29,924 nt of DNA, from the NCBI GenBank assembly GCA_030641085.1, contig DAOWIC010000323.1, positions 1-29,924 on the forward strand. The letters are read 5' to 3'. Positions within the stretch are counted from its first letter, which is position 1, and each line of letters opens with the position of its first letter. Positions 7,015-29,924 of the stretch are shown in pieces. Below the pieces are notes generated by a model that was given only the letters and a program-made list of their open reading frames with translations, did no database searches and was not told where the DNA came from. Both the position numbers and the translations under genes were made by a program. This DNA is from Calditrichota bacterium (GTDB lineage Bacteria; Zixibacteria; MSB-5A5; GN15; FEB-12).

Positions 7015-7042
7015 CGGACACCTGTTGGTTTCATGGTCGGTT

Positions 7043-9525: not shown

Positions 9526-9538
9526 GTTTACTATAATA

Positions 9539-10549
9539 TTACAGTAGCGCTGACTTGCCCAGTTTGAATTTTATACCCGCAATCCGATCTAAAGAGGTCT
9601 GTACCCGTTCTTTGGAGATCTCGCCGCGCAGGAATGAGTCTTTGAAATAGTCGAACGCCCGCACCGATTCTTCAATATCCTGGCCGATCAAGAGCAGATC
9701 GTGCCCGGCCTTGAAAGCCGCCACCGCCCGCTCTCCCGGATGGCCGAGCGTGTCGGCGCCCTTCATCAAGAGATCATCAGTGATTACCGGACCATCGAAA
9801 AAGAGCTTCTGGCGTAAAAAGAAATTGACAAGCTTTTCCGAGTGAGTGGCCATTTCGTCGTCAAGCCCCCTGAGCTTGACATGGGTGGTCATCACAAGAT
9901 CGGCTCCATGATCCACACCGGCCGCAAACGGCAGCAGTTCGCGCTGTTCAAACAGGATTTCATCAAAATCGATCAGCGACAATTTGTCATGGGGATCGAT
10001 ATTGGCCGCGCCCAGACCCGGGAAATGCTTCAGACAGCAGAGAAGACCGGCTTTGTGAGCGATATCCACCGCGGCAGTGATAAACGGCACAACATCCGCG
10101 GCGGTGGTGCCAAAACAGCGATCTTTCAGGCAGGTGTTGTTCTCGTTGAGGAAGATGTCGCAGACAGGTGACAGGTTGATACTAATGCCCAGCGATTTCA
10201 GCAGCAGCATCGAACGGGTGTAATCTTCGCGGAACTGATCCAGTCCGAAGCGGGTTCCGTAATCCCAGGCGGAGTGAAACTCAGCCGGCGCGCTTTTTAT
10301 ACGGCATACACGGCCGCCTTCCTGATCGACGGCGATAAACGGCAACGAGCCACCCATCTTATCGCGGATCAACGTCACGTTCTGCTTGGTCAACTGGTGC
10401 GTGGGGCAGTTCTCCGCAAAGAGTATCACGCCGCCGATATTATCCTCGGCAATGAAGTCAAGAAACGACGATGCCGGTCGGTCTCCGGGGAAACCGATTA
10501 CAAATAACTGACCAATGTTCTTTTCCATATCAGACATTGAGTAACACAT
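9539..10549 (-). CDS. nagZ: Beta-N-acetylhexosaminidase (GH3, NagZ-type)
   Basis: Motifs 'IGQLFVIGF', 'GGVILF', 'VDQEGGRV', 'KHFPGLG....DPH' and 'VITDDL' fit the single-domain NagZ signature. Confidence 0.9.
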   Translation of the reverse strand: MCYSMSDMEKNIGQLFVIGFPGDRPASSFLDFIAEDNIGGVILFAENCPTHQLTKQNVTLIRDKMGGSLPFIAVDQEGGRVCRIKSAPAEFHSAWDYGTRFGLDQFREDYTRSMLLLKSLGISINLSPVCDIFLNENNTCLKDRCFGTTAADVVPFITAAVDIAHKAGLLCCLKHFPGLGAANIDPHDKLSLIDFDEILFEQRELLPFAAGVDHGADLVMTTHVKLRGLDDEMATHSEKLVNFFLRQKLFFDGPVITDDLLMKGADTLGHPGERAVAAFKAGHDLLLIGQDIEESVRAFDYFKDSFLRGEISKERVQTSLDRIAGIKFKLGKSALL

Positions 10550-12165: not shown

Positions 12166-12716
12166 ATCTAAGGCAATCCAGACTTATACCCAGTATATCG
12201 GCCGGATACCAACATTATTTATTGAAAGCAAACAGCTTAGATAAGTTTATCGGCATCGTCGGCCACTCCTTGCGGTCGCGGTCGGATTTTCATCCCAATC
12301 GACTCCGCCAATCCGAATCATGCCCACACACGCCCGTTCCGTCTATGGGCCGGCCAAACCCGACTCATTCCCGGGAGCATCGGGTAACCATCAGCGAGTA
12401 ATGGAGTTACCCTTACGGCAACGGACCGGCATTGTCGGAACACTGCGGTCAATAACAGGACCGGTCAGACAACTATCGCGGCATGGTTGTCTATCCGGCA
12501 ATCTGGTATATCGCAGCCGAGATGCGTTCGAATTTGATGCGTCTTCAATCAGTCTTACCTGCCGGAATCCGCCTGCCGCCAAGAGAATTACGTCCGATCA
12601 AAGTCGCTAAGCAGCATTTCCGGGCACGGTTTTATTACTTTACAACGATTCTGTTCTGCGTTTTAATTCAGGCAACCGGATCATCTGTTTGCCGTAGATA
12701 TAGAAAACAGAACGGG

Positions 12717-14024
12717 ATGACGCTTTTGAAGATGGCAACATTCAGACATATGGGAATCATGGTCGCGGCCTGGCTATTATTGACCCTGCCGGCTGTCAAC
12801 GTGACGGCGATGGAGTTTGAGTCGGGCGAAAAGATCCATATCTCGAACCTTCATCACCTCGAGGATGATCTGTTCGCCTGGGGCGAGAGTATCATTATCG
12901 ACGGTCAGATAGACGGTGATCTTTTTGCCGGCAGTTACTCGGTCGTCACCAACGGGCACGTTCGCAGTTCGGCGCATGCTTTCGCTTTCAAGTATCGTCA
13001 CACCGGTCGTATCGACGGCTCCCTGCGGATCTTTGCCAACGAGTGCATTATTGACGGCTTTGTCGGCCGGTCGGCCCTCATCATGGGTAACGAAATCACC
13101 GTCGGACGGACCGCTATCATCGACCAGGACGCTGTCTTCCGGGGGAATATTCTCAAACTCGACGGCACCATCAAAGGCAACACCGATATCAAGGGCGCCG
13201 ATGTTATGATTACCGGTCGCATCGACGGCGATCTGTTGATCAAGGCGGACAAGATAGCCATCATACCGCCCGCTGTTATCAACGGCAATCTGACCTACAC
13301 CTGTGAAGATGAAGCGCAGATCGATACCGAGGCGGGAGTGGTCATCGGCGGCGAGACTACCTGGAAGCTGCCGGATGAGGATGGCGAAAGCAAAGATAAG
13401 CCCAGCCGGCTGACCCTGTTCACGATCCAGGTTTCCAGGCTTCTGGCGGCATTTTTGTTCGGTATCATTCTTCTCGCCGCCTGCAAACGGTACGCCGTTG
13501 AATCGGTCAAGCAGTTGCGCGAGCGCTTCACGGTCGCCACCGCGACCGGATTTCTCGGGGTGCTTGTCTTCATTGCCGGCCTGCTGATCCTGGTTGTCGC
13601 GGCCATATCGGTACCGCTGGGAATGTCCCTCATTTCCGGTAGCCTGGCGCCGGTCGGCGTCCTTATTACCGCCCTGGCAATCGTGCTGGTTCCGATCACC
13701 AGCCTGGTAACGGTTTCGGGGGGCGTGCTCTTTTACAGCGGCAAGATTATCGCCGCCTTCCTGGTCGGCTACCTGGTGATGCGATGGAAAAGTCCGGACT
13801 CCGTCAGGCCGACCAGAAGCCAGCTTCTGATAGGTCTGATTATTCTGACCGCCGCCTTTGCCATACCACTGGTCGGTTTGCTGCTGTATCTGTTGATTAG
13901 TATTATCGGGGCGGGCGCAATCATCCTCGGAATCAAACATTGTCGGGCTACCACCCTCACCCGGATCGAAGAGCCGCCGGAGAGAGCCGCAGAACCGATG
14001 CCCCCGGCGGATGCACCGGACTAA
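12717..14024 (+). CDS. Bactofilin-like beta-helix (polymer-forming cytoskeletal-type repeats) with a multi-pass membrane C-terminus
   Basis: Signal-like N-terminus (start 12717 or 12732; the ORF-track start at 12483 is probably too long), repeated 'I.G.I.GD' units (IDGQIDGDL, ITGRIDGDL, INGNLTY), then about six hydrophobic helices. Confidence 0.7.
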   Translation: MTLLKMATFRHMGIMVAAWLLLTLPAVNVTAMEFESGEKIHISNLHHLEDDLFAWGESIIIDGQIDGDLFAGSYSVVTNGHVRSSAHAFAFKYRHTGRIDGSLRIFANECIIDGFVGRSALIMGNEITVGRTAIIDQDAVFRGNILKLDGTIKGNTDIKGADVMITGRIDGDLLIKADKIAIIPPAVINGNLTYTCEDEAQIDTEAGVVIGGETTWKLPDEDGESKDKPSRLTLFTIQVSRLLAAFLFGIILLAACKRYAVESVKQLRERFTVATATGFLGVLVFIAGLLILVVAAISVPLGMSLISGSLAPVGVLITALAIVLVPITSLVTVSGGVLFYSGKIIAAFLVGYLVMRWKSPDSVRPTRSQLLIGLIILTAAFAIPLVGLLLYLLISIIGAGAIILGIKHCRATTLTRIEEPPERAAEPMPPADAPD

Positions 14025-15747: not shown

Positions 15748-17931
15748 TTATGCTCGTTTCTCGACAATGAATATCTTGCCGTCGGGAAATTGAATATCAA
15801 CCGGGATGCCGTCGCGCAGTTCTTTGGCAGTCAATTTCATTGGCGCGTCGTCCTCGCCGGCATAGATATCGGTCAGCTTCAGCTTGGCCGCCTTGAGGCC
15901 GGCCTCGCGTAGATCGGCCTTAATAATGATCTCCTTGTGTCCGGCCTCGAAACCATCGGACAGTTCGCCTGGGGGCGGCGCCACCACAAACAACAAACCA
16001 CGCTTGGAACCCATCTGGAAGGAGATATCAACCGAGGGATCGCTGCAATACAGGTATGACTCGATCTTTTCACCCAGGAGAACCGATTCCAGGAATGTGA
16101 GCTTCTGGTGGTTCCCGCCCGAGGCGATATCAAAGGCGAAGAAATAGAGGTTGCCCTTGAACCGAGAGGAACAGACTCCCACCACCTTGGCGTCAACCTT
16201 GACCAGCTTCTTGACTTTGGAATCATCGGTCGATCGAATCGTACCGTAGATATAAGCCGGGAAAGAGCCGTTCTTGTGGGTCACGGAGCCAATACGGTCA
16301 TCGACTGAGGTCTTGATCCTGAAATGATTGGCCAGCACCTGGCAATCCTTGAAGCCTTCATCGTACTTGGGCATCAGGCCGCAGAGCAGGATAGTGACAC
16401 CGGCTTTGGCCAGGTCGATAATCGCCTCCTGATCGCGTTTGGCCATCACCTCGGTGGTCGGAATGAAGAGCATCTTGTATTTTGTCAGTGTTTCGAAATT
16501 CCGGTTTTCGCGCACGCCGAAGTTCAGTTTCAGGCGCATCAGGTCGCGGCAGAATCCAACACTTGACTCGTAGAGGAGACGGTTGACATAGGTGAACGCC
16601 TTCTTGCTCGAGGTTCCGGCCAGCCAGGAATAGAGACGGTTGCCGACCACGGCGATATCGGCGGACGCTTCCATCTCCTCAAGACCAACGCCGGCGATTG
16701 CCTGGCTGAACTTCTTTGTCAGAGCGTAGCCGTCGGAGACGGTTCCATCGTTATGCAGCGGGGCACCATACCAGTGATCGCGATCGACAAACATGTAATG
16801 ATTGAACCCCTTGAAACCGGATGACAGCCCGGCTGCGAGATAAAACCGGCGTGTGTTCGGTTTTATCGGGGCGACTTCCTCTTCGCGCTCCGGCTCAGCC
16901 GCGCCCGCCCCGGACACAAACGAGGTAGCGAAAGCAAAACCGTATTCCGCCTGCAGGAAACGGGCTTTAAGCGCAAAGTCGAAATAGTTGCCTTCGGGAA
17001 AGACGTTGGCGCCCAGGAAAGGCGAACGATCTTCAGGCACCAGATTGAACGCCGGTAACAAATCGCCCTGTCGGAAATACAGCGAGCGGAACATCAGCGG
17101 CTCCACCGTGTACGACGTAAAGATGTCCTCAAGCTGCTGCAGGTACAGATTCAGCAAATTCTCCCGGAAGCGATACCAGTCGAATACCTTGGGGTAGTCC
17201 TTTATGTCGAGATCGGTAAACTTGCGCGGCGGTTGCACCGATTCGAAGCTGTCGTTTTTCTCCTTGTACTGCGCGTTGAGCTTCTTGATCTCCTCGTACT
17301 TGTCCAGGAGAAACGGCGCATAATACTGCTCAAGGACGGTCGGGTTATAGTCGGCGCTGTCCGGTTCGAGCAGCCGCCCGAAAGAGGTCTCGAAGTCAAG
17401 TTCGACCATGAAGATCGGTCCGCGCGGGTGGACATAATTTTTGGTCGCCTCCACAAAAGCCTTGAAGTAGTTCCGGAGATGATACTGGAAATTTCGGTGA
17501 AGAAAGCTCGGTAAATAACCGGCCGACACGCCGTAATCTTCCGGCAGCCGCCGCTCCAGCCCCTGGGCATCACGGGAAAAAATGTTGATATCATTGAACA
17601 GATATTTCGGCAGGCCGCCGTTTTCAAGCTGGCCGCATACCAGCGGACCGGGCCTTAATATGACCTTGAACCCAAACTCGCGGGCCAGTTCCAAAAAGAC
17701 GATCAGGTCCTTTCGCGGGTCGGTCAAACCGGCAAAATCAAAATGTTTAGTCTCGTCCTGATGGATATTCCACGGTACGGCGCTGGAGATAATGCCGAAA
17801 CCGGCTCTTTTGATGCGCTCGAAACAGATTGACCAGTATTTCTTGTCAATTCTAAAGTAGTGGAGTTCTGCGGAAAACGGATGGTAAGTTTCTTTACCGA
17901 TGGAAAAACGATTACCTATTACACCTAACAT
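15748..17931 (-). CDS. GH35-like protein with GlmA-type (exo-beta-glucosaminidase) architecture, probably catalytically altered
   Basis: Motifs 'SAELHYFRI', 'VPWNIH', 'FLELAREFGFKVILRPGP', 'GGLPKYL', 'RGPIFMVELDFE' and 'FNHYMF', followed by a GATase-like alpha/beta middle domain ('YKMLFIP...GVTILLCGLMP'). No signal peptide. Confidence 0.75.
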   Translation of the reverse strand: MLGVIGNRFSIGKETYHPFSAELHYFRIDKKYWSICFERIKRAGFGIISSAVPWNIHQDETKHFDFAGLTDPRKDLIVFLELAREFGFKVILRPGPLVCGQLENGGLPKYLFNDINIFSRDAQGLERRLPEDYGVSAGYLPSFLHRNFQYHLRNYFKAFVEATKNYVHPRGPIFMVELDFETSFGRLLEPDSADYNPTVLEQYYAPFLLDKYEEIKKLNAQYKEKNDSFESVQPPRKFTDLDIKDYPKVFDWYRFRENLLNLYLQQLEDIFTSYTVEPLMFRSLYFRQGDLLPAFNLVPEDRSPFLGANVFPEGNYFDFALKARFLQAEYGFAFATSFVSGAGAAEPEREEEVAPIKPNTRRFYLAAGLSSGFKGFNHYMFVDRDHWYGAPLHNDGTVSDGYALTKKFSQAIAGVGLEEMEASADIAVVGNRLYSWLAGTSSKKAFTYVNRLLYESSVGFCRDLMRLKLNFGVRENRNFETLTKYKMLFIPTTEVMAKRDQEAIIDLAKAGVTILLCGLMPKYDEGFKDCQVLANHFRIKTSVDDRIGSVTHKNGSFPAYIYGTIRSTDDSKVKKLVKVDAKVVGVCSSRFKGNLYFFAFDIASGGNHQKLTFLESVLLGEKIESYLYCSDPSVDISFQMGSKRGLLFVVAPPPGELSDGFEAGHKEIIIKADLREAGLKAAKLKLTDIYAGEDDAPMKLTAKELRDGIPVDIQFPDGKIFIVEKRA

Positions 17932-18160: not shown

Positions 18161-18189
18161 AAAAAAAACCCCGGCCAAAATAGCCGGGG
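18161..18189 (-). terminator. Intrinsic terminator after the cohesin-like/CTD gene
   Basis: Minus strand reads CCCCGGC-TATTTTG-GCCGGGG-TTTTTTTT. Confidence 0.85.
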
Positions 18190-18214
18190 CTATACAAAAT
18201 CGTGCTGTGCCAAA

Positions 18215-19126
18215 TTACTTCAGCAGCATCATCTTCTTGGTTTCTACAAAGGAACCGGCTTCCATGCGATAGAAGTAGATTCCCGAAGAAACCTTGTTGC
18301 CGCCGTCACTGGTGCCGTCCCAGTCCACGACATAAGAACCGGCATTCATCTCTTCGTCGACCAGGGTAACTGTCTTCTGTCCGAGCACGTTAAAAACGCT
18401 GATGTTGACCTGCGAATGGGTCGGGACATCAAAGTTTACTTGAGTAGTCGGGTTGAACGGGTTCGGATAGTTCTGCGACAGGTCAAACGAGGTCGGCAGC
18501 ATGTCGCCGCGCGACGAAATGCCCTGCGACGGATCGGTCACTATGAAGCAGTGCGGTCCATCCCAGGCCGGCTCGATTGAACCACCCGGGCCAACCCACA
18601 TCCAGTAACCGGTCGGCCGGTAGAAGCAGGTGTCAAGGCAGATGGTCCTGCCGTGGTCGGTGGTCGCGATCGGGCCGATGGTGATCAGGTAGGATTCTTC
18701 GTCGAAGTTCGCGGGAACACCTGAACAGTTCGACATGATTGCGCCGCCGTAACCGACCGTATCGACAAGCATGCCGTCAACGTCGGACAAGGTAATTCCG
18801 TAAGTATCAAGGAAGCCCCAGTCCGGGGGGACTAAGTTTAGATTGTAACCGGTCCAGCCCCAGCTAACCGTGTCGGCAAACGTCTCGGTCCAGGTGGCGC
18901 CATCGTCGGAGTAAACCTTGAAACCGTTGGCCATACCTTCAATGAGATCAGCGTCGTTGGTAAAACGCAGGACGAACGTAATGGTCGTCGAACCATCGGC
19001 AATGATGCGATCGGTCGTACCATCTACCAGACCTTCGGTTCTTTCCAGGGTGATGCCCTGCCCGAATGCCATGCTGAACGAGCAAACAAGCAGGATAACG
19101 GTGAGAATTGACAGCTTAACTTTCAT
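18215..19126 (-). CDS. Secreted protein: cohesin-like beta-sandwich + FlgD-Ig/T9SS-type C-terminal sorting domain
   Basis: Signal peptide (MKVKLSILTVILLVCSFSMAFG), RBS GGAGG and a C-terminal 'FDLSQNYPNPFNPTT...FNVLGQK..TL...WDG...SSGIYFYRMEAG...KKMMLLK'. The CTD call is strong; the cohesin call for the N-domain is a pattern inference. Confidence 0.75.
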   Translation of the reverse strand: MKVKLSILTVILLVCSFSMAFGQGITLERTEGLVDGTTDRIIADGSTTITFVLRFTNDADLIEGMANGFKVYSDDGATWTETFADTVSWGWTGYNLNLVPPDWGFLDTYGITLSDVDGMLVDTVGYGGAIMSNCSGVPANFDEESYLITIGPIATTDHGRTICLDTCFYRPTGYWMWVGPGGSIEPAWDGPHCFIVTDPSQGISSRGDMLPTSFDLSQNYPNPFNPTTQVNFDVPTHSQVNISVFNVLGQKTVTLVDEEMNAGSYVVDWDGTSDGGNKVSSGIYFYRMEAGSFVETKKMMLLK

Positions 19127-19335
19127 TTTAACCTATGCCTCCATACATCAGATTTTTCCATCCCAAGGATCGAATAATTAACAGATCTATTTATCAAATA
19201 CTTATAAGGCCACCTCCCGTAAGTACGTGGAAGCTACTGTTTTTTGTTCCACTCATGCAATAATCCATTCTCAAAATACGGCCATGAGTTATCGGAGTCA
19301 ATAAGAATAATAGCCGCATACAATATTTAACAGGC

Positions 19336-19364
19336 GCGTCGGGCCGCATTCGGCGGCCCGACGC
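19336..19364. terminator. Perfect 12-bp GC hairpin between the S8 protease and the cohesin-like/CTD gene
   Basis: GCGTCGGGCCGC-ATTCG-GCGGCCCGACGC with only a weak U tract on the minus strand; a partial terminator or mRNA stabiliser. Confidence 0.55.
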
Positions 19365-19380
19365 AACAATTGCTCTCCAG

Positions 19381-21774
19381 TTACATAGACGGCGGTGCCG
19401 GGCCTTCGTTAAACGCATAATTCACCAGGTAGACCAGATCGGCCACGTCAATCTGGCCACTTCCGTCCACGTCGCCGCCGATCGGATCGGGCGCCGGGCC
19501 TTCGTTAAAGGCGTAATTCACCAGAAGTACCAGATCGGCCACATTAATCTGGCCGTTACAATCGGCATCGCCGTGAGCGCACGGTCCAATACTGATTTTA
19601 CCCGGCGTGAAAATCGGAAAATAGTTGCCCAGAATCGTGGTCATACGAGGGTTTTTGCCCGAAACGGTGGCGGTATCGATAATGCTCACGATCTCCGGGT
19701 CGGATTCCCGGGGAGCGGTGAAGTAAAGGTTCAAAATCGGGCCGTCACCCGGGGTTAGATAGGTGGAGCCGCCGGAAGTGTTGGTTTTCATGAGGATCGA
19801 CACACCATAGTGCCACGGATCGGCGGCGTTTTTGGTGATTGATTCGAAATACTCAGTGCGCAGGCCTTCCACCGAAAAGCTGTCGTAGGTGATGCCATTG
19901 TCGTTGGCGTAAGTGAAGGCGAACTGAATCTCTTTCACCAGCACCGTGTTCCTGAGATAAACCGGCACCGCCACGCTCTTGCCCTTGGAGGCTTCCACCG
20001 AATCCATAATGCAGGTATCTCCCTGCACCCAAACATAGTTTTTCAGGTACTCTTCGCCCCATCCCAGCGGGTTGCCTTCGTCGACTTTCAGGGAGACCGT
20101 ATAGACACCAACATCATTAAATGTATACTGCGGGTTCTGCTCTATGGAGCCGTCACCGTTGCCGAAACTCCATTCCCAGGCGGTGGGCGAGTTCGGGGAG
20201 AGATCGGTAAACTGCACCGTCAGCGGCACCGGGCCGTCGGTTACGTCGGCCGTGAACTTGGCGTTGGGCAAGTTGATCAGCGCCTGGTAGGCGTCGATAC
20301 GGCCTGAGCCGAGCAGATTGCGTAAATCGATCGGGTTGGCGTTGTACAGGGCATCATAGTCGGCCGAATTAACAATAATCGAGTCTATCTGGTCACGGTT
20401 CAGCGACGGCATGTGCGAGCGAATCAGCGCCGCCAGCCCGGCTACCATCGGCGATGCCATCGAGGTGCCGCTGAGCGAGGCGGTCATGGGCACATATTCG
20501 TCGGAATAGGTCGAAAGAATTGAGGAGCCGGGTGCCGAGACATCAATCCAGTCGCCGTAATTGGAAAAGCCGGATTTCGCATCGGAGTAAGGTCCGGTCG
20601 ACGCTATCGAGAGGACATCCCCCCCCGGTCGGGTATCCAAAAAGTCGGGATACTCATTATCGTCGTTGCCCGCCGCGTGGCAGATAGTCATGCCGGCCGC
20701 GACAGCATTGTCGATGGCCGCCGACTGGGCCGAACTGCCACCCCAACTGCAGTTGACGACATGGGCGCCCATCATTGCGGCGTAATCGATGGCCGCCGCC
20801 GCATCGCTTGGATTTACGTAGCCGTGGCCGTCATCGGCCGTACCGCCGATTCTCAGGCATATTATTTTGGCGCCGGCAAAAGAGCGGTGGCCGCCGTACC
20901 AGCCACCAGCCACACCGGTTACGTCCAGACCGTTGTTATTGGCCGCGGCGGTAATGCCGGCACAGTGAGTGCCGTGACCGTTAAAATCGTTCGGATCAGA
21001 ATCGCGAACACCGCCGTCCTCACCCGGCCAGACCGAGCCGAGGCCGCTGAGGAAGTCGTAGCCAATCAAATCGTCAATGACGCCGTTGCCATCGTTGTCA
21101 ATGCCGTCCAGATCGTCTTCGTCGTAAACAATTCCGTCGCCGTCGAGATCCTCACCCGGATTGACCCAGATATTCTGGATCAGATCGCGGTGCAGGTAAT
21201 TAACGCCGGTGTCGGTCATAGCAATTTTGATCGAGTCGGAGCCGGTTTCGATATCCCAGGCGTCATAAAACAGCGGATCGGGTGTGGAGGGGTAGTTCAT
21301 CGCCCACTGCGAGCCCCATTCCGGATCGTTGGGCTCCGCCTCCACCGGTTGCGCCCAGACCGCCTCGGCGGTTCTGATATTGGGGTTTTGCAGCAGGGCA
21401 TCGACCACGTCGGACACATTCTGTGTCTCATCGAACTTGAACTGGTACCAACGGGTTAGATCGTGCATGCCGGAGTTGACCGGCGGCTTTTCGGTTCGCC
21501 ACGGGAATATCTTCGTGGCGTCGTACACCTTAACCTGGTCCAGCACGGCGTCCAGACTGGCCAGTCCGAAGCGGACTTTGTCGAAGCTTTTCTCGACTGA
21601 TCGCAGGTCGACATCGTCTTCAAAGCGTACAGAAACCACACCCTTGATAATAAACGGTTCCGGCTTACCTTGATCGTCGCCGGGATAAATTCTTGCGTTT
21701 GAGGTAGTGGTCAGAACCAACAGTGCCAGCATGATGGCGACCATGGTGACAGCACCGGGAACCCTCTTTCTCAT
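19381..21774 (-). CDS. Subtilisin-family (S8) serine protease with PKD, cohesin-like and dockerin domains
   Basis: Signal peptide (ATG 21774, AAGGAG 8 nt upstream), prodomain, catalytic triad motifs 'TDTGV', 'NGHGTHCAG' and 'SGTSMASP', PKD ('VPLTVQFTDLS...WEWSFGNG...NPQYTF...GVYTVSL'), a cohesin-like 'VAVPVYLRN...IQFAFTY...PGDGPILNLYF', and a duplicated dockerin 'GDADCNGQINVADLV...GDVDGSGQIDVADLV'. Confidence 0.92.
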   Translation of the reverse strand: MRKRVPGAVTMVAIMLALLVLTTTSNARIYPGDDQGKPEPFIIKGVVSVRFEDDVDLRSVEKSFDKVRFGLASLDAVLDQVKVYDATKIFPWRTEKPPVNSGMHDLTRWYQFKFDETQNVSDVVDALLQNPNIRTAEAVWAQPVEAEPNDPEWGSQWAMNYPSTPDPLFYDAWDIETGSDSIKIAMTDTGVNYLHRDLIQNIWVNPGEDLDGDGIVYDEDDLDGIDNDGNGVIDDLIGYDFLSGLGSVWPGEDGGVRDSDPNDFNGHGTHCAGITAAANNNGLDVTGVAGGWYGGHRSFAGAKIICLRIGGTADDGHGYVNPSDAAAAIDYAAMMGAHVVNCSWGGSSAQSAAIDNAVAAGMTICHAAGNDDNEYPDFLDTRPGGDVLSIASTGPYSDAKSGFSNYGDWIDVSAPGSSILSTYSDEYVPMTASLSGTSMASPMVAGLAALIRSHMPSLNRDQIDSIIVNSADYDALYNANPIDLRNLLGSGRIDAYQALINLPNAKFTADVTDGPVPLTVQFTDLSPNSPTAWEWSFGNGDGSIEQNPQYTFNDVGVYTVSLKVDEGNPLGWGEEYLKNYVWVQGDTCIMDSVEASKGKSVAVPVYLRNTVLVKEIQFAFTYANDNGITYDSFSVEGLRTEYFESITKNAADPWHYGVSILMKTNTSGGSTYLTPGDGPILNLYFTAPRESDPEIVSIIDTATVSGKNPRMTTILGNYFPIFTPGKISIGPCAHGDADCNGQINVADLVLLVNYAFNEGPAPDPIGGDVDGSGQIDVADLVYLVNYAFNEGPAPPSM

Positions 21775-22071
21775 CGTATTCACTCCTTAGCCCCTATCAA
21801 ATAATGCGTTTAGTCTGCTCAGAATGTGCAATCAGTATAAGGTATAACAACAAACGTCGTGCCGAGTTTACACAATTTGCCTGCTTATATAAGACGTTAA
21901 GCACCAGCTACTTACCGTCCGACAATGTTCCCAAAGTGCAGCCTTTTGCGTAAAAGACGGCCTCCTGTGAACTTCTGTGAGGTAATGGGTTTTAGTCAGA
22001 ACCTGTTTATCAAGGGCGATTCAAGTCCGGGCTATGAAGTAAATATAATATGGTTATGGAAATAGTCCAAG

Positions 22072-22108
22072 AAAAAAAAGCCACCCCCGAAATCGTCGGG
22101 GGTGGCTT
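22072..22108 (-). terminator. Intrinsic terminator after the 1312-aa dockerin protein
   Basis: A 13-bp stem AAGCCACCCCCGA/TCGGGGGTGGCTT with an A8 tract on the plus strand (U tract on the minus strand). Confidence 0.88.
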
Positions 22109-22161
22109 CTGTTTCTGTTATCGAAAGGAATCTGTCGATTCCGTACTATCGATAATTATTT

Positions 22162-25100
22162 CTAGTGAACCTCACCCGGGCACCAGACCGGATCATCACC
22201 ACCTCCGAATGACCAGCTGACCCAGTAGACGATGTCAGCAACATCGACACGTCCGGAGTCATCCATATCGCACTCGGGATAGAAATAGGCACCCTCTTCA
22301 CCTTCTTGGCAACCCGGATGTACCGGATTACCCTTAAAGGCCCAGTTTACCCATGCCACAACGTCTTGGACGTCGACACGATCGTTATGGTCGAAGTCAC
22401 CACGGTTGTTGCAGCAGGAACCACAGGCGTCACCGACGCCGTCGCCGTCACTGTCTTCCTGACCCGGATTCCAGACATACGGGCAGTTATCGACATCGTT
22501 CAGGACGCCGTCGCCATCGATATCGGTGTCACAGGCATCGCCTTCACCATCTTCGTCCATATCCGCCTGGTTGCTGTTGGCAGCAGTCGGGCAGTTATCA
22601 CAGGCGTTACCTACTCCATCGTTATCGAAGTCGGACTGGTTGTGGTTAGCCGTAGTTACACAGTTGTCACAGCCATCCGGAACACCGTCGCCGTCAACGT
22701 CGTCTGAGTCGCTGAAGCCTAGGCAGGCATCGCACGCATCCGGAACGCCGTCCCCGTCAGTGTCGGTGCCGTCGTCGTAGACATACGGGCAACCATCGGA
22801 GGCGTTCAGGATACCGTCGCCGTCGATATCATCATCGAGAACGTCCGCGGTACCGTCTTCATCAACGTCACCCTGATCCGGGTTGGGGACGTTCGGAGCG
22901 TTATCGCAGGCGTCGATAATACAGTCACCGTCGGTATCAGCCAGAAGGGTCAACATATCCTTCTTGGCAGTAAAGTCTTCGTACCAGGCGATTCCTCGGT
23001 CGACAACACCGGCCAGATCGGTAATAGTACCATCCTCAACCGTCACCATAACAGTGAAGGCTGAGTAGACATCGGTCGGGCCGATGGTGATCTGTGGCGT
23101 GTAACACATGACCGAGTGAAGGTCGCGCTCGACCTGTTCGGTTACCCAGAAGCCGGAAGTGTGCATGAAGCGCCAAAGCTGGGCCGGCACAAATCCACTA
23201 GCGGGATAAACGAAGGAGTCATTGTTGTTGCAATAGGCCGAGTATGGGACATTGCCACCCGGTGAGAGCAACGAGCCGTTCATGTGCTGCTCGAGGAAGG
23301 CCAGACCGGCCCAGCGGTTATTGGCCTCGACACAGTCATCCTGAAGAGTGTCACTTTCAAGATTCAGCTCGGTACCCTGCTGGTAAATCAGGTTACGAGT
23401 GTCATCAATACCAGGATCGTTCTTGGAGGAGTCGCCCGGGACATCCCAGTCAATCGCCTCACCGATGGTCAGGTCGGCGTGCGTGCCGCCGTCATAGGAC
23501 CATACTTTAAGAACCTGGATAATGAAGTCACAATCGATGGCATCCTGCGGAGCCACCCAGATACGCTCGAGACCAATGGCAGAGTCGTGAGTCACGAAGG
23601 TGCCGGACTGGAAGACCTGAAAAGTCGGGTCACAGTATGTCGCGTTGAGATGACCACCGAGCGGGCGGAAGCCTGCATCATCGGTGAAGCCATCATCAAA
23701 GATCGACCAGTTGAATACGGTGTCATGAGTGTTGGCGCCTTCCGGCTCGGCCAATTCCTCAATCCAACCGATAACCGGTGAACCGTCGTACAGGTACGGC
23801 GTTGCGGTTGTATCGCAGTCGCCGGCATTCACGAAGTCCATGCCATATCGCTTCGTGCCCTCGTTACCACAGTTACCGTTGGTGGCGACAACCAGACCGA
23901 GACAGGTGGTCGTGATCGTATCAAAGGCCGGACGATGCAGAGTGTCAGCCACAATGAGGCTGACCTCAAGCACGTTCGGGCTGGAGGGAGCGTTGCTACT
24001 GAAGATCAGGCGACCGGTCAGAACTTCCGGAATCGCCTTGGTCTGAACGCCACCGGTGTTGAGCGTTACAATACCGGTCTCAAGGTTGCCGAATCCGGAC
24101 GGAACGGCGCCGGTGAAGCCCATGTGACCGAGCCAGCCGGTCGGACCGTTGTCTTCTTCGACGACGACCGAATAAGTCAGGCCAACGTTACCGGTGTTTT
24201 CGATAACCAGAGGCGTATCAAGCTGAATACCCGGCCTGGTCCAAGTCGGGTCAGCAACCTGAGCCCAGGACGGAACCAGTTTCGGGTTCGGGATAGCTTC
24301 GACACAAGCCAGACGGAACCAGTTCACGTCGGCTTCCTGCCAGGTGCCTTCATCCTGTACAATACCACCGGCATCGGGGTCCATAATGTACTGAACCTCG
24401 AGGTAGTATTCGCCGACAGCGCCGGTGAATGTACCGGACGGGTCGACGACCTCAGCGTTGGACCAGTCGTCGTCAGTTTGATTAGGACGACCGAAACGGG
24501 ACATCGACGGCCAGTTTTCGGACATACATGGCTCGCCGCCACCCGCAATGTCACAGTCCTTGGAGTAGGTGTTAGTGACGTTACGGGCTTCATCCCAGGT
24601 CAGACCGTCGTCTTCCGAGACGGAGATCCAAAGATCACCGTTGGCGGCGCCGGACGGAGCCTCGTTGTAACGGGCGGCACAGTCATCAAAGACGCCGTGT
24701 ACCGGATCCAGGAACTGTACCCAGAGGGCATACAGTCTGCCGTTACATTCCGAGACCTGCATTTTGGCGATGTTACCATTCCACGCGCCAGACCAGCATT
24801 CAATGTCATCCCACAGGGCGCCCCACACCGCGTCTTGAACGGTACGGATAAGGGGAGCCGGGTTGGCTACATCGTCGAAAGCTTCCGACCAGTGGAACAG
24901 ACGGCCTTCAGGCAGCCAGCCTTCAGTCGCGGCATCGGCCGGCCAGTAAGTACCGAACCACAGGATGTGGAGATCGTCGTCGGAATCAATCATACACGAC
25001 AGATCGGTATAGAGACGGTAGCCGGTTTCACCGTCGACCATTTTGGTCAGGTTGACTCTCGGGTTCCAGGTTTGACCCTGGTCGTCAGAGATCTGATATA

Positions 25101-26100
25101 ATACGTCGTTATCCCACTGAACGTGGATAGTTGACGTACCCGAGCAGGTATCACAGTCACCCGGATTGGGGAGGTTGGCCCCCCAGACCAGAGCCACCTT
25201 GTCGGTGGTTCTGGAGGCGGCGATGTCTTGCGATATGTCATAGATCGTGTCGACACAATACGGCGGGTCATCCCAGGCACTGTTCGGGAACAGGCCCTGG
25301 AAGGGATTCACCAGCCGGAAGTAATAAACCGCCTGCGGATCGGCGGCGTTGGCTTCGGATATCTGAGAGAACACGTGAAGGACCGTATCGGTACCTTCCT
25401 GCAGCCGGAATTTCGGCCAGATGCACTCGTCAGCATCATTGGATTGATAGTATCCAGCGAGTTCGTCCGGGACTCTCTCCGTCTCGCCAAAGTCGAAAGC
25501 ACCGTAGCCGGGCTCCCAGTCACGGTACAGGTGCGGCTCATAGTGGTCATCACCGGTCTGGTTGTGACCGCCGATGATGGCACGGCCACTTTTATCGACA
25601 TCAAGGCCGACGTAACCGGCATATTCGTCACCACTCTGCACGATAATGGGTGCGGTAGCGAAAGCGCCACCGGCGATGTTGTAGTAGTTATAGCCATAGG
25701 CACGAGCGGTGAAGGTCGGCAGGGGCAAATACATCCACGAGAACTGAATCCACGCGGCGCTGGTTTCCCAAGCCGGATTCGGTGGGTGGGGGCCCCAAGC
25801 AACCATACGGCCGATCGTTCCATTGTGCTGATAGTCATACCAGGTGGTACCGACTGTCTTACCCGGTGACGCTTTGTCCGGGCTTTTGTCATAGTCATAA
25901 GACACGCCGACTGACGGCAGGGCACCAGCGCCCACGGTAAAACTGTGTTCATTCGGGAAGGAGTATACCACCGATCTATCGATGATTGCTCGATCAGAAT
26001 TTTTAACAATTACCGGGGATCTGGCAGCCATGGCGGTCAAGGCCAGCAGACTTACCAGCAACAAGGAGAGGATTAGTAGTGAAGAAAATCTCCTTATCAT
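22162..26100 (-). CDS. Large secreted protein: Asp-box (BNR) beta-propeller-like N-terminus, Ig-like domain, TSP3 repeats and C-terminal dockerin
   Basis: Signal peptide, RBS GAAAGGAG, Asp-boxes 'SDDQGQTW' and 'SEDDGLTW', an Ig-like 'LVIENTGNVGLTYSV', several DxDGDGVxDACDNC repeats, and a dockerin 'CCNNRGDFDHNDRVDVQD...CDMDDSGRVDVADIV'. Confidence 0.85.
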   Translation of the reverse strand: MIRRFSSLLILSLLLVSLLALTAMAARSPVIVKNSDRAIIDRSVVYSFPNEHSFTVGAGALPSVGVSYDYDKSPDKASPGKTVGTTWYDYQHNGTIGRMVAWGPHPPNPAWETSAAWIQFSWMYLPLPTFTARAYGYNYYNIAGGAFATAPIIVQSGDEYAGYVGLDVDKSGRAIIGGHNQTGDDHYEPHLYRDWEPGYGAFDFGETERVPDELAGYYQSNDADECIWPKFRLQEGTDTVLHVFSQISEANAADPQAVYYFRLVNPFQGLFPNSAWDDPPYCVDTIYDISQDIAASRTTDKVALVWGANLPNPGDCDTCSGTSTIHVQWDNDVLYQISDDQGQTWNPRVNLTKMVDGETGYRLYTDLSCMIDSDDDLHILWFGTYWPADAATEGWLPEGRLFHWSEAFDDVANPAPLIRTVQDAVWGALWDDIECWSGAWNGNIAKMQVSECNGRLYALWVQFLDPVHGVFDDCAARYNEAPSGAANGDLWISVSEDDGLTWDEARNVTNTYSKDCDIAGGGEPCMSENWPSMSRFGRPNQTDDDWSNAEVVDPSGTFTGAVGEYYLEVQYIMDPDAGGIVQDEGTWQEADVNWFRLACVEAIPNPKLVPSWAQVADPTWTRPGIQLDTPLVIENTGNVGLTYSVVVEEDNGPTGWLGHMGFTGAVPSGFGNLETGIVTLNTGGVQTKAIPEVLTGRLIFSSNAPSSPNVLEVSLIVADTLHRPAFDTITTTCLGLVVATNGNCGNEGTKRYGMDFVNAGDCDTTATPYLYDGSPVIGWIEELAEPEGANTHDTVFNWSIFDDGFTDDAGFRPLGGHLNATYCDPTFQVFQSGTFVTHDSAIGLERIWVAPQDAIDCDFIIQVLKVWSYDGGTHADLTIGEAIDWDVPGDSSKNDPGIDDTRNLIYQQGTELNLESDTLQDDCVEANNRWAGLAFLEQHMNGSLLSPGGNVPYSAYCNNNDSFVYPASGFVPAQLWRFMHTSGFWVTEQVERDLHSVMCYTPQITIGPTDVYSAFTVMVTVEDGTITDLAGVVDRGIAWYEDFTAKKDMLTLLADTDGDCIIDACDNAPNVPNPDQGDVDEDGTADVLDDDIDGDGILNASDGCPYVYDDGTDTDGDGVPDACDACLGFSDSDDVDGDGVPDGCDNCVTTANHNQSDFDNDGVGNACDNCPTAANSNQADMDEDGEGDACDTDIDGDGVLNDVDNCPYVWNPGQEDSDGDGVGDACGSCCNNRGDFDHNDRVDVQDVVAWVNWAFKGNPVHPGCQEGEEGAYFYPECDMDDSGRVDVADIVYWVSWSFGGGDDPVWCPGEVH
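22420..22945 (-). repeat. Thrombospondin type 3-like Ca-binding repeats (about 9)
   Basis: Recurring DxDxDGxxDxCDNC units in the translated protein. Confidence 0.8.
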
Positions 26101-26478
26101 CCATCGCTCCTTTCGAGGTTTAAAAAGTTCCCAACTTAGTCCTCAATTCAAGAAAAACATGCGTGCGATCTCTCTGCAAAAAGCAGACCGCACTCCAGAC
26201 GCCCCTTTGGATAAAAAGGCGTTGGCAATCATGAAAGTTACTCTGCTATGAATCCACCTCCCTTCCCGAACACAAAATGTCATGGGTTCTGTCCATTGTG
26301 AATAAAACTGAAGTAAGTGCTTTACAACTAATTCGCTAATGTCCTTCGTTACCTAATCGAAAAAAAAATCATGCTGTTACAACACGATACTTAATGAACA
26401 CTTGAGTTTCACTAAGCGAGAAATGTGTAAGACATATCAGTCATTTAGCCCTGCTCCCACATCAGCAAGACTAGTATA

Positions 26479-26507
26479 TATATAAGTACGCAACCTATTC
26501 TTGTCAA
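26479..26507 (-). promoter_or_regulatory. Putative sigma70 promoter about 380 nt upstream of the 1312-aa gene
   Basis: Minus strand TTGACA (26507-26502), 17 nt, TATATA (26484-26479), just downstream of the preceding terminator. Confidence 0.55.
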
Positions 26508-26534
26508 GCTATTTTGGCCGATTATTGAACAGCA

Positions 26535-26569
26535 GAAAAGCAAAGAGGCCGCCCGTTTTGGGCGACCTC
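26535..26569 (-). terminator. Intrinsic terminator after the cadherin/Ig-repeat gene
   Basis: Minus strand GAGGTCGCCC-AAAAC-GGGCGGCCTC-TTTGCTTTT: a 10-bp stem with one G-U pair. Confidence 0.75.
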
Positions 26570-26601
26570 AATCGCATTGGAAATCCGGTAAGAAATCGCA
26601 A

Positions 26602-29600
26602 TTACTGCGGCGGCCGAGGCCCGGAACGATACATATAGTTGATAAGATATGCGACATCGGCAACATTGATTGTGCCACTGCGGTCGACATCACCCGCATC
26701 GGGCGGACTTGGCTCCTCGCCCTCGCGGAAAAGGAAACCAATTATGTAGACAATATCGTTCATGGTATAGACTTCGTCGGCATCAGCGTCGCCGCGCAGC
26801 ATCGATCGCACGTGGAGGGTGGTCGCAATCGTGTCAGCAGCACCGCCTACGTCGGTGACGACAAACGAGACCACCTCCGTTGTACCGTCCAGAGTCACAT
26901 CCGGGTAGTAGCTGAAGCTGGCCGCACCGTTTCCGGAATCGACAAAGAAGAACTCCGGTAACTCCGGTGTAACACTTAAGGTTACAGGCTCGGCCTCGGG
27001 ATCGTCGGCTACCAGGTGCAGCTCCAGTCCGGTGCCGACAAAGACATCAACGTCCGGATCAACCTCGGTTGTAAAGCTGGGCCGCTGGTTGCCGGCTTCG
27101 CCCACATTGACGATCACCGTGACTGTGGTGGAGGCGCCTTCGTCATCGACCGCAACAATGTCGATCGAATAGGTGCCGGCCTGAGTGTAATCCGGGTTGA
27201 ACTGGAGTGTTTTCACGGTGTTCGAACCGGTGAAAGTCGCATTCAACGGCAGATTTTCGGCCGTCAGACTTGCTACCGTACCGTTGATATCAGTGGCGGC
27301 CACAGTGAAGAACAGGGTACCACCCTCGGCGATATTGAACGGTCCGGAGCTGGGCGAAAATTCCAGCGTCGGCGGCGGGTTATAGTCATAGACCATAATC
27401 GATTTCGGCTCCGAAAGGGGCGAGGTCAACTCCGGATCGGCTTGGTCAATCGCCTGAACCCTGAACTCGTACAGGTTAGGCACCGGGGCGGTGCCCTGAG
27501 TGAAGTCCGGGTTGAAGATCAACGTGCCGATCGTCATCGTATCGCCACTATTGACTATCGAAAACGACATATTCGGCGGCAGCGGCTCTGAATCGCCGTA
27601 GACCACGGCTATGCCCGGCAGGGTTGAATCGACATCCCAGGCGTATATCAGGTACTCGAGCGTTTCACCTTCGTTCATGCTGACTGAACTCACCGGCGTG
27701 AAGTAGCTCGGCGCCCGATTGGTATCCAGGACCGTGATAAACACCGTCTGAGTGTCAAACAACGCATCATCATTGGCATCCAGAGCGGTAATCAGGATTT
27801 CCCAGTCACCGGCGTCGAATGCGCCCGGAGTCCAGCTAAAGAAGCCGGTGCCGTCACCGAGGTCGGTCAAGCCGGCCGTGCCGGGAAGCTCGGCCGTAAA
27901 TCTCGGAGGGAAGTCCTCATCCGGATCACTGGCCGAGACTCCGAAGGTCAGATTCTGGAGTTCTCGAACGGAGTAAGCTGGAATCGGGTCGAGGACCGGT
28001 GACTGGTTGCCGGCATCAAGGACAGAAATTGTCATCACTATTGTATCGGCCATGACACCGTCGCTGGCAACAACATAGATGTCGTACATACCGGCCTGGG
28101 TGTAGCCCGGCGTGAAGGTGTAGTAAGCCACACCGTCGCCACCATCTTCCAGCGTGAAATTCTCCGGCAGGGACACAATCGACTCGTCGACCGTATAGGA
28201 GATCGACAGCGTGTCGGGATCGTGAGCGGTGAGACCGCCGGTAAGAGTCTCGCCCTCGGTTACCAGGGGGCTGGGAATCGAGTCGAAGATCGGCGGCTGG
28301 TTGCCACCGTCGTAGACCTGTATCAGGACGATTTCCTTGTCATCATCCATTCCGTCGTAAGCCCGGAAAGTCACGCTGGTCAGCCCGGCCTGGATATATC
28401 CGGGAGTGAACCGGAAGCGACCGGTGCCGTCACCGTTATCAACGAACTCGAGGAATAAAGAAGTATCGGGCATTCTCTCGGCTATCAGCATCGGCGGGCC
28501 TCCGTCCGGATCGATAGCGGAAATATCAATCACCAGTGTATCACCTTCGACCGTCGTCTGCGGGCCGACATAGGCCAAAACCGGGGGCAGATTCCCCGTC
28601 ACAACCGTTATCGTGACCACCTCTTCGGCCGTATCAGTCCCATCATCGGCACCAAAAGTGACGATGTAGGCGCCGGCTTGACCGTATTCGGGCATCCAGT
28701 AAAAATTACCGGTGCCGTCGCCATTATCGGTAAAGGTCGCCCCGGTGGGAATAGCAGTGGCATACAGCGCGGGCGTACCGCCATCGGGATCGGTGGCCGA
28801 AATGTCAATCGAGAGAATCTTTTGTCCCACTATCGACCGGTCGCCAATCGCCGCCAGAACCGGCGGCTGGTTGACATCGGTAACCGTTATGAGAACCACT
28901 TCGCTGTCGGATGCCAGGTCGCCGTCGGTGGCGACAAAAGTGACCGAATAGGCACCGCGCTGGGCGAAAGTGGGGGTCCAGTCAAAAGTACCGGTACCGT
29001 CGGTATTGTCGACAAAGGTCGCGCCGACGGGAAGGCCGGTAGCGGCAAGGGTCGGAATGGAGCCCTCCGGATCGGTAGCCGTGACGACGAAAGACAGCAG
29101 CGTGTTTTCGTACGCTACCTGGTCGCCGATTGCGGCCAGAACCGGCGGCTGGTTACCGGACTCACTCACCGTGATCGTAACCAGTTCGCTATCGGTGTCA
29201 ACACCATCGGTAGCGTAGAACATGATGTCGTGAGTACCGGCCTGAGTGAAGTCGGGCGTCCAATCAAATTCGCCTGTGGCGTCGCCGTTGTCGACCAGGA
29301 CCGCCCCGAGCGGGAGCGTGGAAGTACTGAACGACGGCGTGTTGTCCAGGTCGGTAGCCGAAAGGCTGATAAGCAACTGGACACCTTCGGACGTGCTTTG
29401 CGGTCCAATCGCCGCCAGAACCGGCAACTGGTTACCGGCCTCGTTGACCGTGACAGGAACAATCAGGTCGGTCGTGAGAGAACCGTCATCGGCTGTGAAA
29501 GTTATGTCGTAGGTTCCGGCCTGCGTGAAGCCCGGCGTCCAGTCGAACGTACCGGTGCCATCGGCGTTATCGACAAAGGTCGCGCCGGTGGGAAGGCCGG

Positions 29601-29922
29601 TAGCGGTAAGCGCCGGGATAGTGGCATCTGGATCAGAGGCCGTTATAACGAAGGTCAGCAGCACGTTTTCGGTGGTCGCCTGAGCGCCGATATCCACCAG
29701 CACCGGGGCCTGGTTGCCGGACTCATTGACTGTGATCGTGACGATCTCATCATCTATCAGTGTGCCATCACTGGCCGTGAAGGTGACATCATAAGGACCG
29801 GCCTGGGTGAAGTCCGGCGTCCAGTCAAATGTACCCGTACCGTCAAGGTTATCAGTAAGCGTCGCGCCGGTGGGCAATCCGGTGGCGGACAGAGCCGGGA
29901 TAGTGGCGTCAGGATCGGAGGC
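26602..29922 (-). CDS. Very large surface protein with tandem cadherin-like/putative Ig (He_PIG-type) repeats and a C-terminal dockerin; 5' end lies beyond the window
   Basis: The frame stays open to the window edge (...ASDPDATIPALSATGLPTG...). It has ten complete plus one partial repeat of about 95-100 aa (NQxPVL..IG.Q...E...L.F.V.A.DPDG...L.A.GLP.GATF.DN.DGTG.F.WTP.F.QAG.Y.VTF.A.DG), then a dockerin 'LRGDADADEVYTMNDIVY...GDVDRSGTINVADVAYLINY'. Confidence 0.9.
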   Translation of the reverse strand, partial: ASDPDATIPALSATGLPTGATLTDNLDGTGTFDWTPDFTQAGPYDVTFTASDGTLIDDEIVTITVNESGNQAPVLVDIGAQATTENVLLTFVITASDPDATIPALTATGLPTGATFVDNADGTGTFDWTPGFTQAGTYDITFTADDGSLTTDLIVPVTVNEAGNQLPVLAAIGPQSTSEGVQLLISLSATDLDNTPSFSTSTLPLGAVLVDNGDATGEFDWTPDFTQAGTHDIMFYATDGVDTDSELVTITVSESGNQPPVLAAIGDQVAYENTLLSFVVTATDPEGSIPTLAATGLPVGATFVDNTDGTGTFDWTPTFAQRGAYSVTFVATDGDLASDSEVVLITVTDVNQPPVLAAIGDRSIVGQKILSIDISATDPDGGTPALYATAIPTGATFTDNGDGTGNFYWMPEYGQAGAYIVTFGADDGTDTAEEVVTITVVTGNLPPVLAYVGPQTTVEGDTLVIDISAIDPDGGPPMLIAERMPDTSLFLEFVDNGDGTGRFRFTPGYIQAGLTSVTFRAYDGMDDDKEIVLIQVYDGGNQPPIFDSIPSPLVTEGETLTGGLTAHDPDTLSISYTVDESIVSLPENFTLEDGGDGVAYYTFTPGYTQAGMYDIYVVASDGVMADTIVMTISVLDAGNQSPVLDPIPAYSVRELQNLTFGVSASDPDEDFPPRFTAELPGTAGLTDLGDGTGFFSWTPGAFDAGDWEILITALDANDDALFDTQTVFITVLDTNRAPSYFTPVSSVSMNEGETLEYLIYAWDVDSTLPGIAVVYGDSEPLPPNMSFSIVNSGDTMTIGTLIFNPDFTQGTAPVPNLYEFRVQAIDQADPELTSPLSEPKSIMVYDYNPPPTLEFSPSSGPFNIAEGGTLFFTVAATDINGTVASLTAENLPLNATFTGSNTVKTLQFNPDYTQAGTYSIDIVAVDDEGASTTVTVIVNVGEAGNQRPSFTTEVDPDVDVFVGTGLELHLVADDPEAEPVTLSVTPELPEFFFVDSGNGAASFSYYPDVTLDGTTEVVSFVVTDVGGAADTIATTLHVRSMLRGDADADEVYTMNDIVYIIGFLFREGEEPSPPDAGDVDRSGTINVADVAYLINYMYRSGPRPPQ
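26810..29922 (-). repeat. Intragenic tandem array of cadherin/Ig-like repeats (about 290-bp units)
   Basis: Units open with NQAP, NQLP, NQPP, NQPP, NLPP, NQPP, NQSP, NRAP, NPPP and NQRP. Near-identical DNA recurs, e.g. GACAAAGGTCGCGCCG..GGGAAGGCCGGTAGCGG at about 29011 and 29572. Confidence 0.85.
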
Positions 29923-29924
29923 GG

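Follow-up and report, generated by a model that had tools for sequence, protein, structure and literature searches.

Described cohesin-dockerin systems and the present locus

The pairing of cohesins with dockerins is the textbook mode of enzyme assembly in Gram-positive cellulose degraders, and the role of many non-cellulosomal cohesins and dockerins, which Peer et al. are said to have surveyed in 2009, has been a question since these modules were catalogued. Four genes for modular surface proteins of this kind (P0001 to P0004) were analyzed on contig DAOWIC010000323.1 of a metagenome-assembled genome (GenBank assembly GCA_030641085.1; 2.36 Mb, 362 contigs, 72% complete); the window was this entire 29.9-kb contig of 29,924 nucleotides. 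Close homologues of the locus proteins carry the name Zixibacteria, and near-identical DNA was found in cold-seep, hydrothermal-vent and marine-sediment metagenomes; among sequencing runs the locus was matched in these DNA metagenomes only and no RNA run was found. On balance, sequence comparison and structure prediction lead us to favor reading the locus as a conserved cassette that belongs to a network of cohesin-dockerin surface display, non-cellulosomal in kind, which would be a phylum-wide trait of the Zixibacteria. What would be added to the described systems is a domain family (Ndom), here read as a divergent cohesin, together with the conserved four-gene cassette.

The proposal for 'Ca. 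Stygibacter' (Cloacimonadota) is the closest published precedent. A cellulosome-like complex was proposed there in silico, comprising dockerin-tagged S8/C25 peptidases and glycoside hydrolases (GHs) and a scaffoldin bearing a C-terminal sorting domain (CTD) (Williams et al. 2021, PMC8542988), and both polypeptides and polysaccharides were inferred to be substrates of the complex (PMC8542988). Shared with the Zixibacteria locus are an FCB-group diderm host, enzymes with signal peptides and C-terminal dockerins (there including an S8/S53 serine peptidase) and a cohesin protein anchored via a CTD of T9SS (type IX secretion system) type; both systems are known by genomic inference alone. The Stygibacter scaffoldin is one protein of 3,755 aa with tandem cohesins and the carbohydrate-binding modules (CBMs) CBM2/CBM3, serving GH18 and GH57 cargo, whereas the proposed Zixibacteria anchor has 303 aa and a single module, a candidate cohesin of much greater divergence, the protease has a cohesin of its own, and 0 of 23 scanned dockerin proteins contain a GH domain. 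Unlike that of Stygibacter, the Zixibacteria system extends across a phylum, whose genomes each have roughly 70 to over 200 candidate dockerins.

Common to this locus and the clostridial and ruminococcal cellulosomes are C-terminal, two-F-hand, Ca-binding dockerins on secreted proteins and cohesin beta-sandwiches as receptors, and the single-cohesin anchoring proteins OlpA and OlpC of C. thermocellum resemble the small single-cohesin surface anchor proposed here. Anchoring would be by T9SS CTD in Zixibacteria and is by SLH (S-layer homology) domains or sortase in cellulosome hosts, because the Zixibacteria host is Gram-negative. The locus differs further from cellulosomes in its peptidase and adhesin-repeat cargo without GHs, in having no CBM-bearing primary scaffoldin, and in the identity of Ndom to solved cohesins, which is about 10%. 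Adaptor scaffoldins combine cohesins with a dockerin (PMC4959524), and the protease P0002 likewise carries both.

Non-cellulosomal cohesin-dockerin systems have been discussed for anaerobic methanotrophic (ANME) archaea of similar habitats (PMC9012536), which share the cold-seep and sediment setting with the Zixibacteria locus. As in the other non-cellulosomal cases, for which surface or cell-cell assembly was proposed, the hosts are not cellulose degraders and some proteins carry both modules. Those cases, among them Archaeoglobus fulgidus, are archaeal or scattered among bacteria; in the Zixibacteria, in contrast, the modules have expanded throughout a bacterial phylum in connection with T9SS, and they include a conserved protease/adhesin cassette as well as the lineage-specific Ndom family. 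In a literature search no paper was found that names Zixibacteria together with dockerins, and a co-mention of Zixibacteria and cellulosome was apparently incidental.

The four-gene cassette

The locus contains the following genes, modules and terminator-like hairpins.

18167..18191, (-): terminator-like hairpin 3' of P0001; stem of 11 bp, then T run
18215..19126, (-): P0001, 303 aa; signal peptide, Ndom (aa 23-201), T9SS type A CTD; proposed surface anchor
18227..18469, (-): T9SS type A C-terminal sorting domain of P0001 (TIGR04183/PF18962)
18524..19060, (-): Ndom of P0001; predicted beta-sandwich, putative divergent cohesin family; no Pfam or NCBIfam match
19381..21783, (-): P0002, 800 aa; signal peptide, S8_N, S8 subtilase, PKD, cohesin, dockerin
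19384..19599, (-): dockerin of P0002 (aa 729-800), Cys-free subtype; from sequence, six-frame search and own profile
19594..20022, (-): cohesin module of P0002 (aa 588-730); from sub-threshold Pfam Cohesin, hhalign and PDB profile matches
22076..22110, (-): strong terminator-like hairpin 3' of P0003; stem of 15 bp with 9 GC pairs, T run
22162..26100, (-): P0003, 1312 aa; signal peptide, ~1,000-aa domain with Asp-box motifs, TSP3 repeats, Cys-rich dockerin
22177..22425, (-): dockerin of P0003 (aa 1224-1308), Cys-rich long-linker subtype; own-profile E 1.2e-34 and alignment
26545..26569, (-): terminator-like hairpin 3' of P0004; stem of 10 bp
26602..29922, (-): P0004, C-terminal 1,106 aa of a giant Ig/cadherin-like repeat protein, dockerin at end
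26608..26820, (-): dockerin of P0004 (aa 1034-1106), Cys-free subtype; from sequence, six-frame search and own profile

The original prediction, made from the letters of the window, had described four co-oriented genes, three with signal peptides and a fourth open at its 5' end. All four open reading frames (ORFs) do lie on the minus strand, typical signal peptides are present in P0001, P0002 and P0003, and P0004 is open at its 5' end, which is the contig end; its full-length orthologues measure 3,216-3,487 aa. A single operon is unlikely, as P0004, P0003 and P0001 are each followed by a terminator-like hairpin, and the genes probably form several transcription units. No such hairpin was found 3' of the S8 gene, unlike the other three, and for this reason P0002 and the anchor gene P0001 may be co-transcribed.

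By Pfam, P0002 contains Peptidase_S8 (E 5.8e-40) and PKD_4 (E 4.7e-10); the catalytic Asp, His and Ser motifs (DTG, HGTH and GTSMA) are all present and the protease is apparently active. P0003 matched TSP_3 in four stretches (E 1.7e-27) and BNR weakly (E 0.0018), in keeping with its earlier labeling as an Asp-box/TSP3 protein; a Protein Atlas search with its ~1,000-aa N-terminal part returned its own cluster and weak BNR_2 leads only, and its orthologues in the cassette are of ~1,000-1,200 aa. P0004, labeled an Ig/cadherin stalk, matched Big_9 (E 1.5e-42), He_PIG (E 6.6e-38) and Cadherin_5 (E 1.6e-17). Each of these three proteins has a two-F-hand dockerin at its C-terminus and no CTD.

The four genes are a conserved cassette: the check for synteny in relatives that had been suggested with the prediction showed it to recur in nine loci (eight genomes) of at least 4 Zixibacteria families. 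On four other contigs, of family f1 (L007, L008/L009, L010 and L011), the order is a giant Ig protein with dockerin (Doc), a ~1,100-1,200-aa protein with Doc, an S8-PKD-cohesin (Coh)-Doc protein and, as the last gene, a P0001-type Ndom-CTD anchor. These anchors are 42-53% identical to P0001, and the dockerin is retained in every cargo orthologue. In L010 the cassette is kept with a different downstream flank, and in L011 the anchor is duplicated. The f5 loci (L038 and L045) have a cohesin-like domain in place of Ndom in the small CTD gene, the ~1,000-aa gene is missing from the f7 locus (L048), and two unassigned dockerin proteins take its place in the f10 locus (L049), which also has three tandem anchors. 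In f5, f7 and f10 the last gene is again small and encodes a cohesin-like-CTD or X-CTD protein.

Dockerins, their number and their cargo

A dockerin was defined as two tandem F-hand segments of ~22 residues, each consisting of a 12-residue Ca-loop (D or N at positions 1, 3, 5, 9 and 12) and a helix. All three tails contain two 12-residue Ca-loops with a helix after each; in P0002 these are DADCNGQINVAD followed by LVLLVNYAF and DVDGSGQIDVAD followed by LVYLVNYAF. Against Pfam Dockerin_1 (PF00404, gathering threshold 22.9 bits) the P0004 dockerin scored near the threshold, with 21.1 bits by hmmscan and 24.7 bits in a six-frame search, and the P0002 dockerin scored 16.8, 22.0, or 29.9 bits with neighbors in frame; that of P0003 was undetected by Dockerin_1 in both hmmscan and the six-frame search. 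With the genome's own dockerin profile all three gave E < 1e-23. The duplicated F-hands were thus read directly where they had been predicted, and on these sequence features the three dockerins are real.

A profile built from the three tails detected 27 further modules in the genome, nearly all ≤6 residues from the C-terminus, a number comparable to that of the T9SS CTDs over cut-off (32); dockerin and CTD are mutually exclusive at the extreme C-terminus. Alignment of 24 genome copies separated two subtypes, a Cys-rich long-linker subtype (about 14 copies, P0003 included) and a Cys-free subtype to which P0002 and P0004 belong. The P0004 dockerin, ending ...SGPRPPQ, is retained in 3 of 4 orthologues read. 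Two different cargo proteins of one genome (L010:1-3144 and L010:3656-6988) have an identical 66-residue dockerin tail, and two cargo dockerins of L011 are near-identical, which points to concerted evolution among the dockerins of one genome.

In order to survey the cargo, 23 dockerin proteins (20 outside the window and the three of the locus) were scanned against Pfam. The domains found were S8 (three times), C1, C39-like, FG-GAP, BNR, TSP3, fn3 and domains of unknown function; no glycosidase domain was found in any of the 23, the genome being 72% complete, so the non-glycosidase cargo that had been predicted was recovered and the system is not a cellulosome in the strict sense. The strict sense also fails for want of a CBM-bearing scaffoldin in the locus or on contig C64, described below.

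For the phylum, 81 genomes were sampled, with dockerins counted by our own profile and cohesins by Pfam (E ≤0.001); the dockerin scores are confounded by kinship to the source genome, and high per-genome counts saturate (≥71). Of the 81 genomes, 80 have dockerins, often at 71 matches or more and at most 281 candidates, and 79 have Pfam cohesins, at 1-10 each. Genome G066 has neither. A distribution of dockerins regardless of cohesins, named beforehand as evidence to the contrary, was not seen: the two co-occur in 79/81 genomes and are both absent from G066. In genome G071, a member of family f16 in the same class, at least 71 dockerins but not one Pfam cohesin were matched; it would either contain an unrecognized class of cohesin or use its dockerins without cohesins. 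Ndom was found in 48 of the 81 genomes; these include 32/32 of family f1 and the majority of its order, outside which Ndom is rare.

Cohesins of the protease and of contig C64

The beta-sandwich predicted in the S8 protein (P0002 aa 588-730) scored 18.5 bits (E 0.0025) against Pfam Cohesin (PF00963), below the 24.1-bit cut-off. By hhalign its family (A4) aligned with the Pfam-validated cohesins of the same genome (A7) at 96.7% probability (E 3.2e-10), and cohesins made up 4/5 of its PDB sequence matches, including the top three (2xdh, 5nrk and 5nrm); 2xdh, the top match, is the Archaeoglobus fulgidus entry. A five-seed cohesin hidden Markov model (HMM) from contig C64 missed the module in the source genome and matched its S8 orthologues weakly. 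By these profile comparisons the module is a true cohesin homologue. It directly precedes the dockerin, with only few residues between, and in other Zixibacteria the PKD-cohesin-dockerin tail also follows FG-GAP domains and peptidases of types M43 and C1.

Contig C64 of the source genome (G000; L001:3-9947, minus strand) encodes three tandem T9SS-CTD proteins of ~840-880 aa, each with an internal dockerin-like module by our own profile. Two of them have 2-3 Pfam-passing cohesins, Big_9 and the CTD, and the third has Ndom and matches cohesin weakly; ahead of the three genes lies one for a dockerin protein of 459 aa. By domain content C64 is the clearest scaffoldin-like locus of the genome. No CBM match was obtained on its multi-cohesin T9SS proteins, and further cohesin proteins are encoded on contigs C120 and C255.

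Ndom, a putative divergent cohesin of the proposed anchor protein

The CTD of P0001 scored 43.7 bits against TIGR04183 (cut-off 23), as expected of T9SS type A cargo. SprA_N was found in the source genome and four relatives (5/5 genomes checked), and GspD-like secretins, below the equivalog cut-off, were found in the same genomes. The diderm FCB-type host that had been proposed is borne out by the Zixibacteria name of the homologues, by SprA and by the 32 T9SS CTDs over cut-off.

No match to Ndom was found in Pfam, NCBIfam or a PDB profile search. Modeled alone with AlphaFold2 from 52 homologues, the domain gave a pLDDT of 90.4 and a pTM of 0.88. A first Foldseek run with two-domain P0001 was swamped by multi-domain Ig-like matches and was repeated with Ndom alone; cohesins of types I, II and III then accounted for about 40 of the top 50 PDB matches (TM-score 0.35-0.64, E 2e-4 to 1e-2, about 10% identity), and no CBM was among these 50. 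Set against the nine-stranded jelly-roll beta-sandwich of cohesins, Ndom by its model adopts a cohesin-like fold, a call that rests on the Foldseek ranking at moderate TM-scores, strands not being matched one by one.

The link in sequence between Ndom and cohesins is transitive only, and runs through A6, the family of the small CTD protein that takes the place of P0001 in the cassette of genus g33, from a distant Zixibacteria family. Some members of A6 carry PF00963, and part of the family is missed by Pfam. By hhalign, A6 aligned with Ndom (A3) at 94.9% probability (E 4.7e-8, 130 columns) with a common '...DS.FFPPxG.W' motif, with the S8 cohesin family (A4) at 91.3% and with the C64 cohesins (A7) at 81.9%. 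Because A6 bridges the two, the most fitting reading of Ndom is that of a rapidly evolving branch within the cohesin superfamily, a very divergent cohesin of a family unseen by Pfam. Predicted fold, transitive homology and cassette position thus agree with the earlier suggestion that the N-domain of P0001 is a cohesin relative.

Different counts gave 11 Ndom copies and eight ORFs in the source genome. P0124 has the layout signal peptide-Doc-Ndom-Ndom-Ndom-cohesin-like-Doc-X-CTD and P0125 the layout Ndom-Doc-Ndom; [Ndom]n-Doc-X-CTD parallels the [Coh]n-Doc-X-CTD proteins of contig C64. A library of 1.84 billion proteins contains 1,391 cluster representatives of the family, some with as many as five copies in tandem, and among the best 140 of these a dockerin is also present in 87 and a CTD in 41.

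One library representative, P0178 (833 aa), alternates strictly as Doc-Ndom-Doc-Ndom-Doc-Ndom-Doc, a layout that would permit head-to-tail polymerization if Ndom binds that dockerin. In P0314 and P0320 (about 250 aa), close relatives of A6, a dockerin replaces the T9SS CTD, from which it would follow that the socket module is either anchored directly or plugged into another socket.

Proposed docking network and alternatives

In the model that we favor, T9SS would export P0001 and fix it on the outer-membrane surface, like other type A CTD cargo. The dockerin proteins would reach the surface by a separate route, through a secretin-type system or by co-export with a CTD protein, and would be held there by Ca-dependent dockerin-cohesin binding. 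Candidate receptors are P0001, the protease's own cohesin and/or multi-cohesin T9SS proteins of the C64 type encoded elsewhere, and its own cohesin could make the protease an adaptor for a second layer. The likely role would be to keep proteases and adhesins on the surface of the cell, so that proteinaceous particles, and not cellulose, are captured and broken down in anoxic sediment.

The original prediction had treated the locus as a modular surface machine. The module content and the conservation of the cassette uphold that description in part; a self-contained unit is doubtful. With three dockerins and two cohesin-like modules in the locus, multi-cohesin T9SS proteins elsewhere and at least 27 other dockerin proteins, the locus is better read as a piece of a genome-wide and phylum-wide docking network.

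Several observations weigh against the proposed network, or against the part given to P0001 in it. Direct hhalign of Ndom reached a probability of 1.1% with the S8 cohesin and 0.3% with the C64 cohesins, no PDB sequence match was obtained for Ndom, and its Foldseek TM-scores were just 0.35-0.64. Ndom is often followed by a dockerin (signal peptide-Ndom-Doc), the layout expected of a cargo module. It is essentially confined to one order and dockerins are phylum-wide, so Ndom cannot be the general receptor. Within the locus, three dockerins of at least 2 subtypes stand against two cohesin-like modules, and terminator-like hairpins set three of the four genes apart. The dockerin proteins have no CTD that would take them across the outer membrane. 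Listed with these points is the predicted complex of Ndom, the S8 dockerin and two Ca, for which the ipSAE was 0.12 against a mark of 0.32; as one pair run without controls it counts neither way, and the modeled contacts on the two dockerin helices carry no weight at that ipSAE.

The alternative that survives best, in our judgment unlikely and still worth keeping, grants that the network is real and denies that P0001 is its neighbors' receptor: Ndom would be a CBM-like or lectin-like ligand-binding module displayed via CTD or dockerin, and the three dockerins would bind canonical multi-cohesin T9SS proteins such as those of C64. It is kept mainly because many proteins consist of signal peptide, Ndom and dockerin, the usual cargo layout. 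Several invariant Trp residues (W57, W153 and W166, domain numbering) suit a ligand-binding module, Pfam-validated cohesins do occur on T9SS-CTD proteins elsewhere in the genome, most of the phylum lacks Ndom and yet has functioning dockerins, and the complex prediction (one pair, without controls) lent the receptor role no support. Against it, cohesins and no CBM headed the Foldseek matches, Ndom is homologous to cohesin-like anchors at the same cassette position in other families, tandem Ndom with Doc-X-CTD copies the scaffoldin layout, and a small X-CTD gene adjoins the S8-Coh-Doc gene in at least 4 families.

A bolder extension strikes us as improbable: Ndom would be a cohesin class born within one Zixibacteria order with a dedicated dockerin subtype, Doc-Ndom-Doc-Ndom proteins would polymerize into a surface mesh, and CTD-less dockerin cargo would ride through T9SS on CTD-bearing cohesins, bound in the periplasm. 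We know of no description of such a piggy-back route for T9SS.

Least credible is the reading in which the tails are Ca-binding tags (an export or retention signal, a stabilizing cap or a means of binding a non-protein surface) rather than cohesin ligands and the S8 beta-sandwich is an X-module-like support, which draws on the ten-fold or greater excess of dockerins over recognizable cohesins (≥71 versus 1-10 per genome), on G071 with its dockerins and no Pfam cohesin, on the position of the tails at the extreme C-terminus to the exclusion of a CTD, as for a sorting signal, and on the few residues that part the S8 cohesin from its dockerin, but which is opposed by the co-occurrence of both modules across the phylum and their joint absence from G066, by the undercounting of divergent cohesins by Pfam (Ndom and part of A6 are missed), by multi-cohesin and multi-Ndom scaffoldin-like proteins that would be purposeless without a ligand, and by dockerin:cohesin ratios that are usually well above one in true cellulosome producers also.

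Flanking genes

The remainder of the window contains housekeeping and cell-wall-recycling genes. A GH35/GH42/GLMA-like gene (15748-17931, minus strand) lies directly downstream of the anchor gene, a position kept in L006, L007, L008/L009 and L011 and not in L010. An outer-membrane beta-barrel/OmpA-family protein (5569-7224, minus strand) has Ca-binding TSP3 repeats between the barrel and the OmpA domain; P0003 and a number of further proteins with dockerins have repeats of this type as well. A peptidoglycan-recycling set (SpoIID-like, AnmK and GH3 NagZ-like) and a bactofilin-like gene (7043-10549, minus strand, and 12483-14024, plus strand) stay syntenic with the cassette on contigs of family f1.

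Significance

The Zixibacteria, a candidate phylum of sediments, have dozens to hundreds of dockerin-tagged proteins per genome, in which the recognizable cargo is mainly peptidases and adhesin-like repeats; T9SS would anchor the matching cohesins, and the small cassette supplies defined cohesin-dockerin candidate pairs. The modules could be used as orthogonal parts for designer scaffolds. If the modules do bind, the CTD-less dockerin proteins would pose a concrete question of secretion, namely by what route they pass the outer membrane; a family unseen by Pfam, with 1,391 cluster representatives, would join the cohesin superfamily; and the complex would be a protease-based, cellulosome-like one of relevance to protein turnover in marine sediments.

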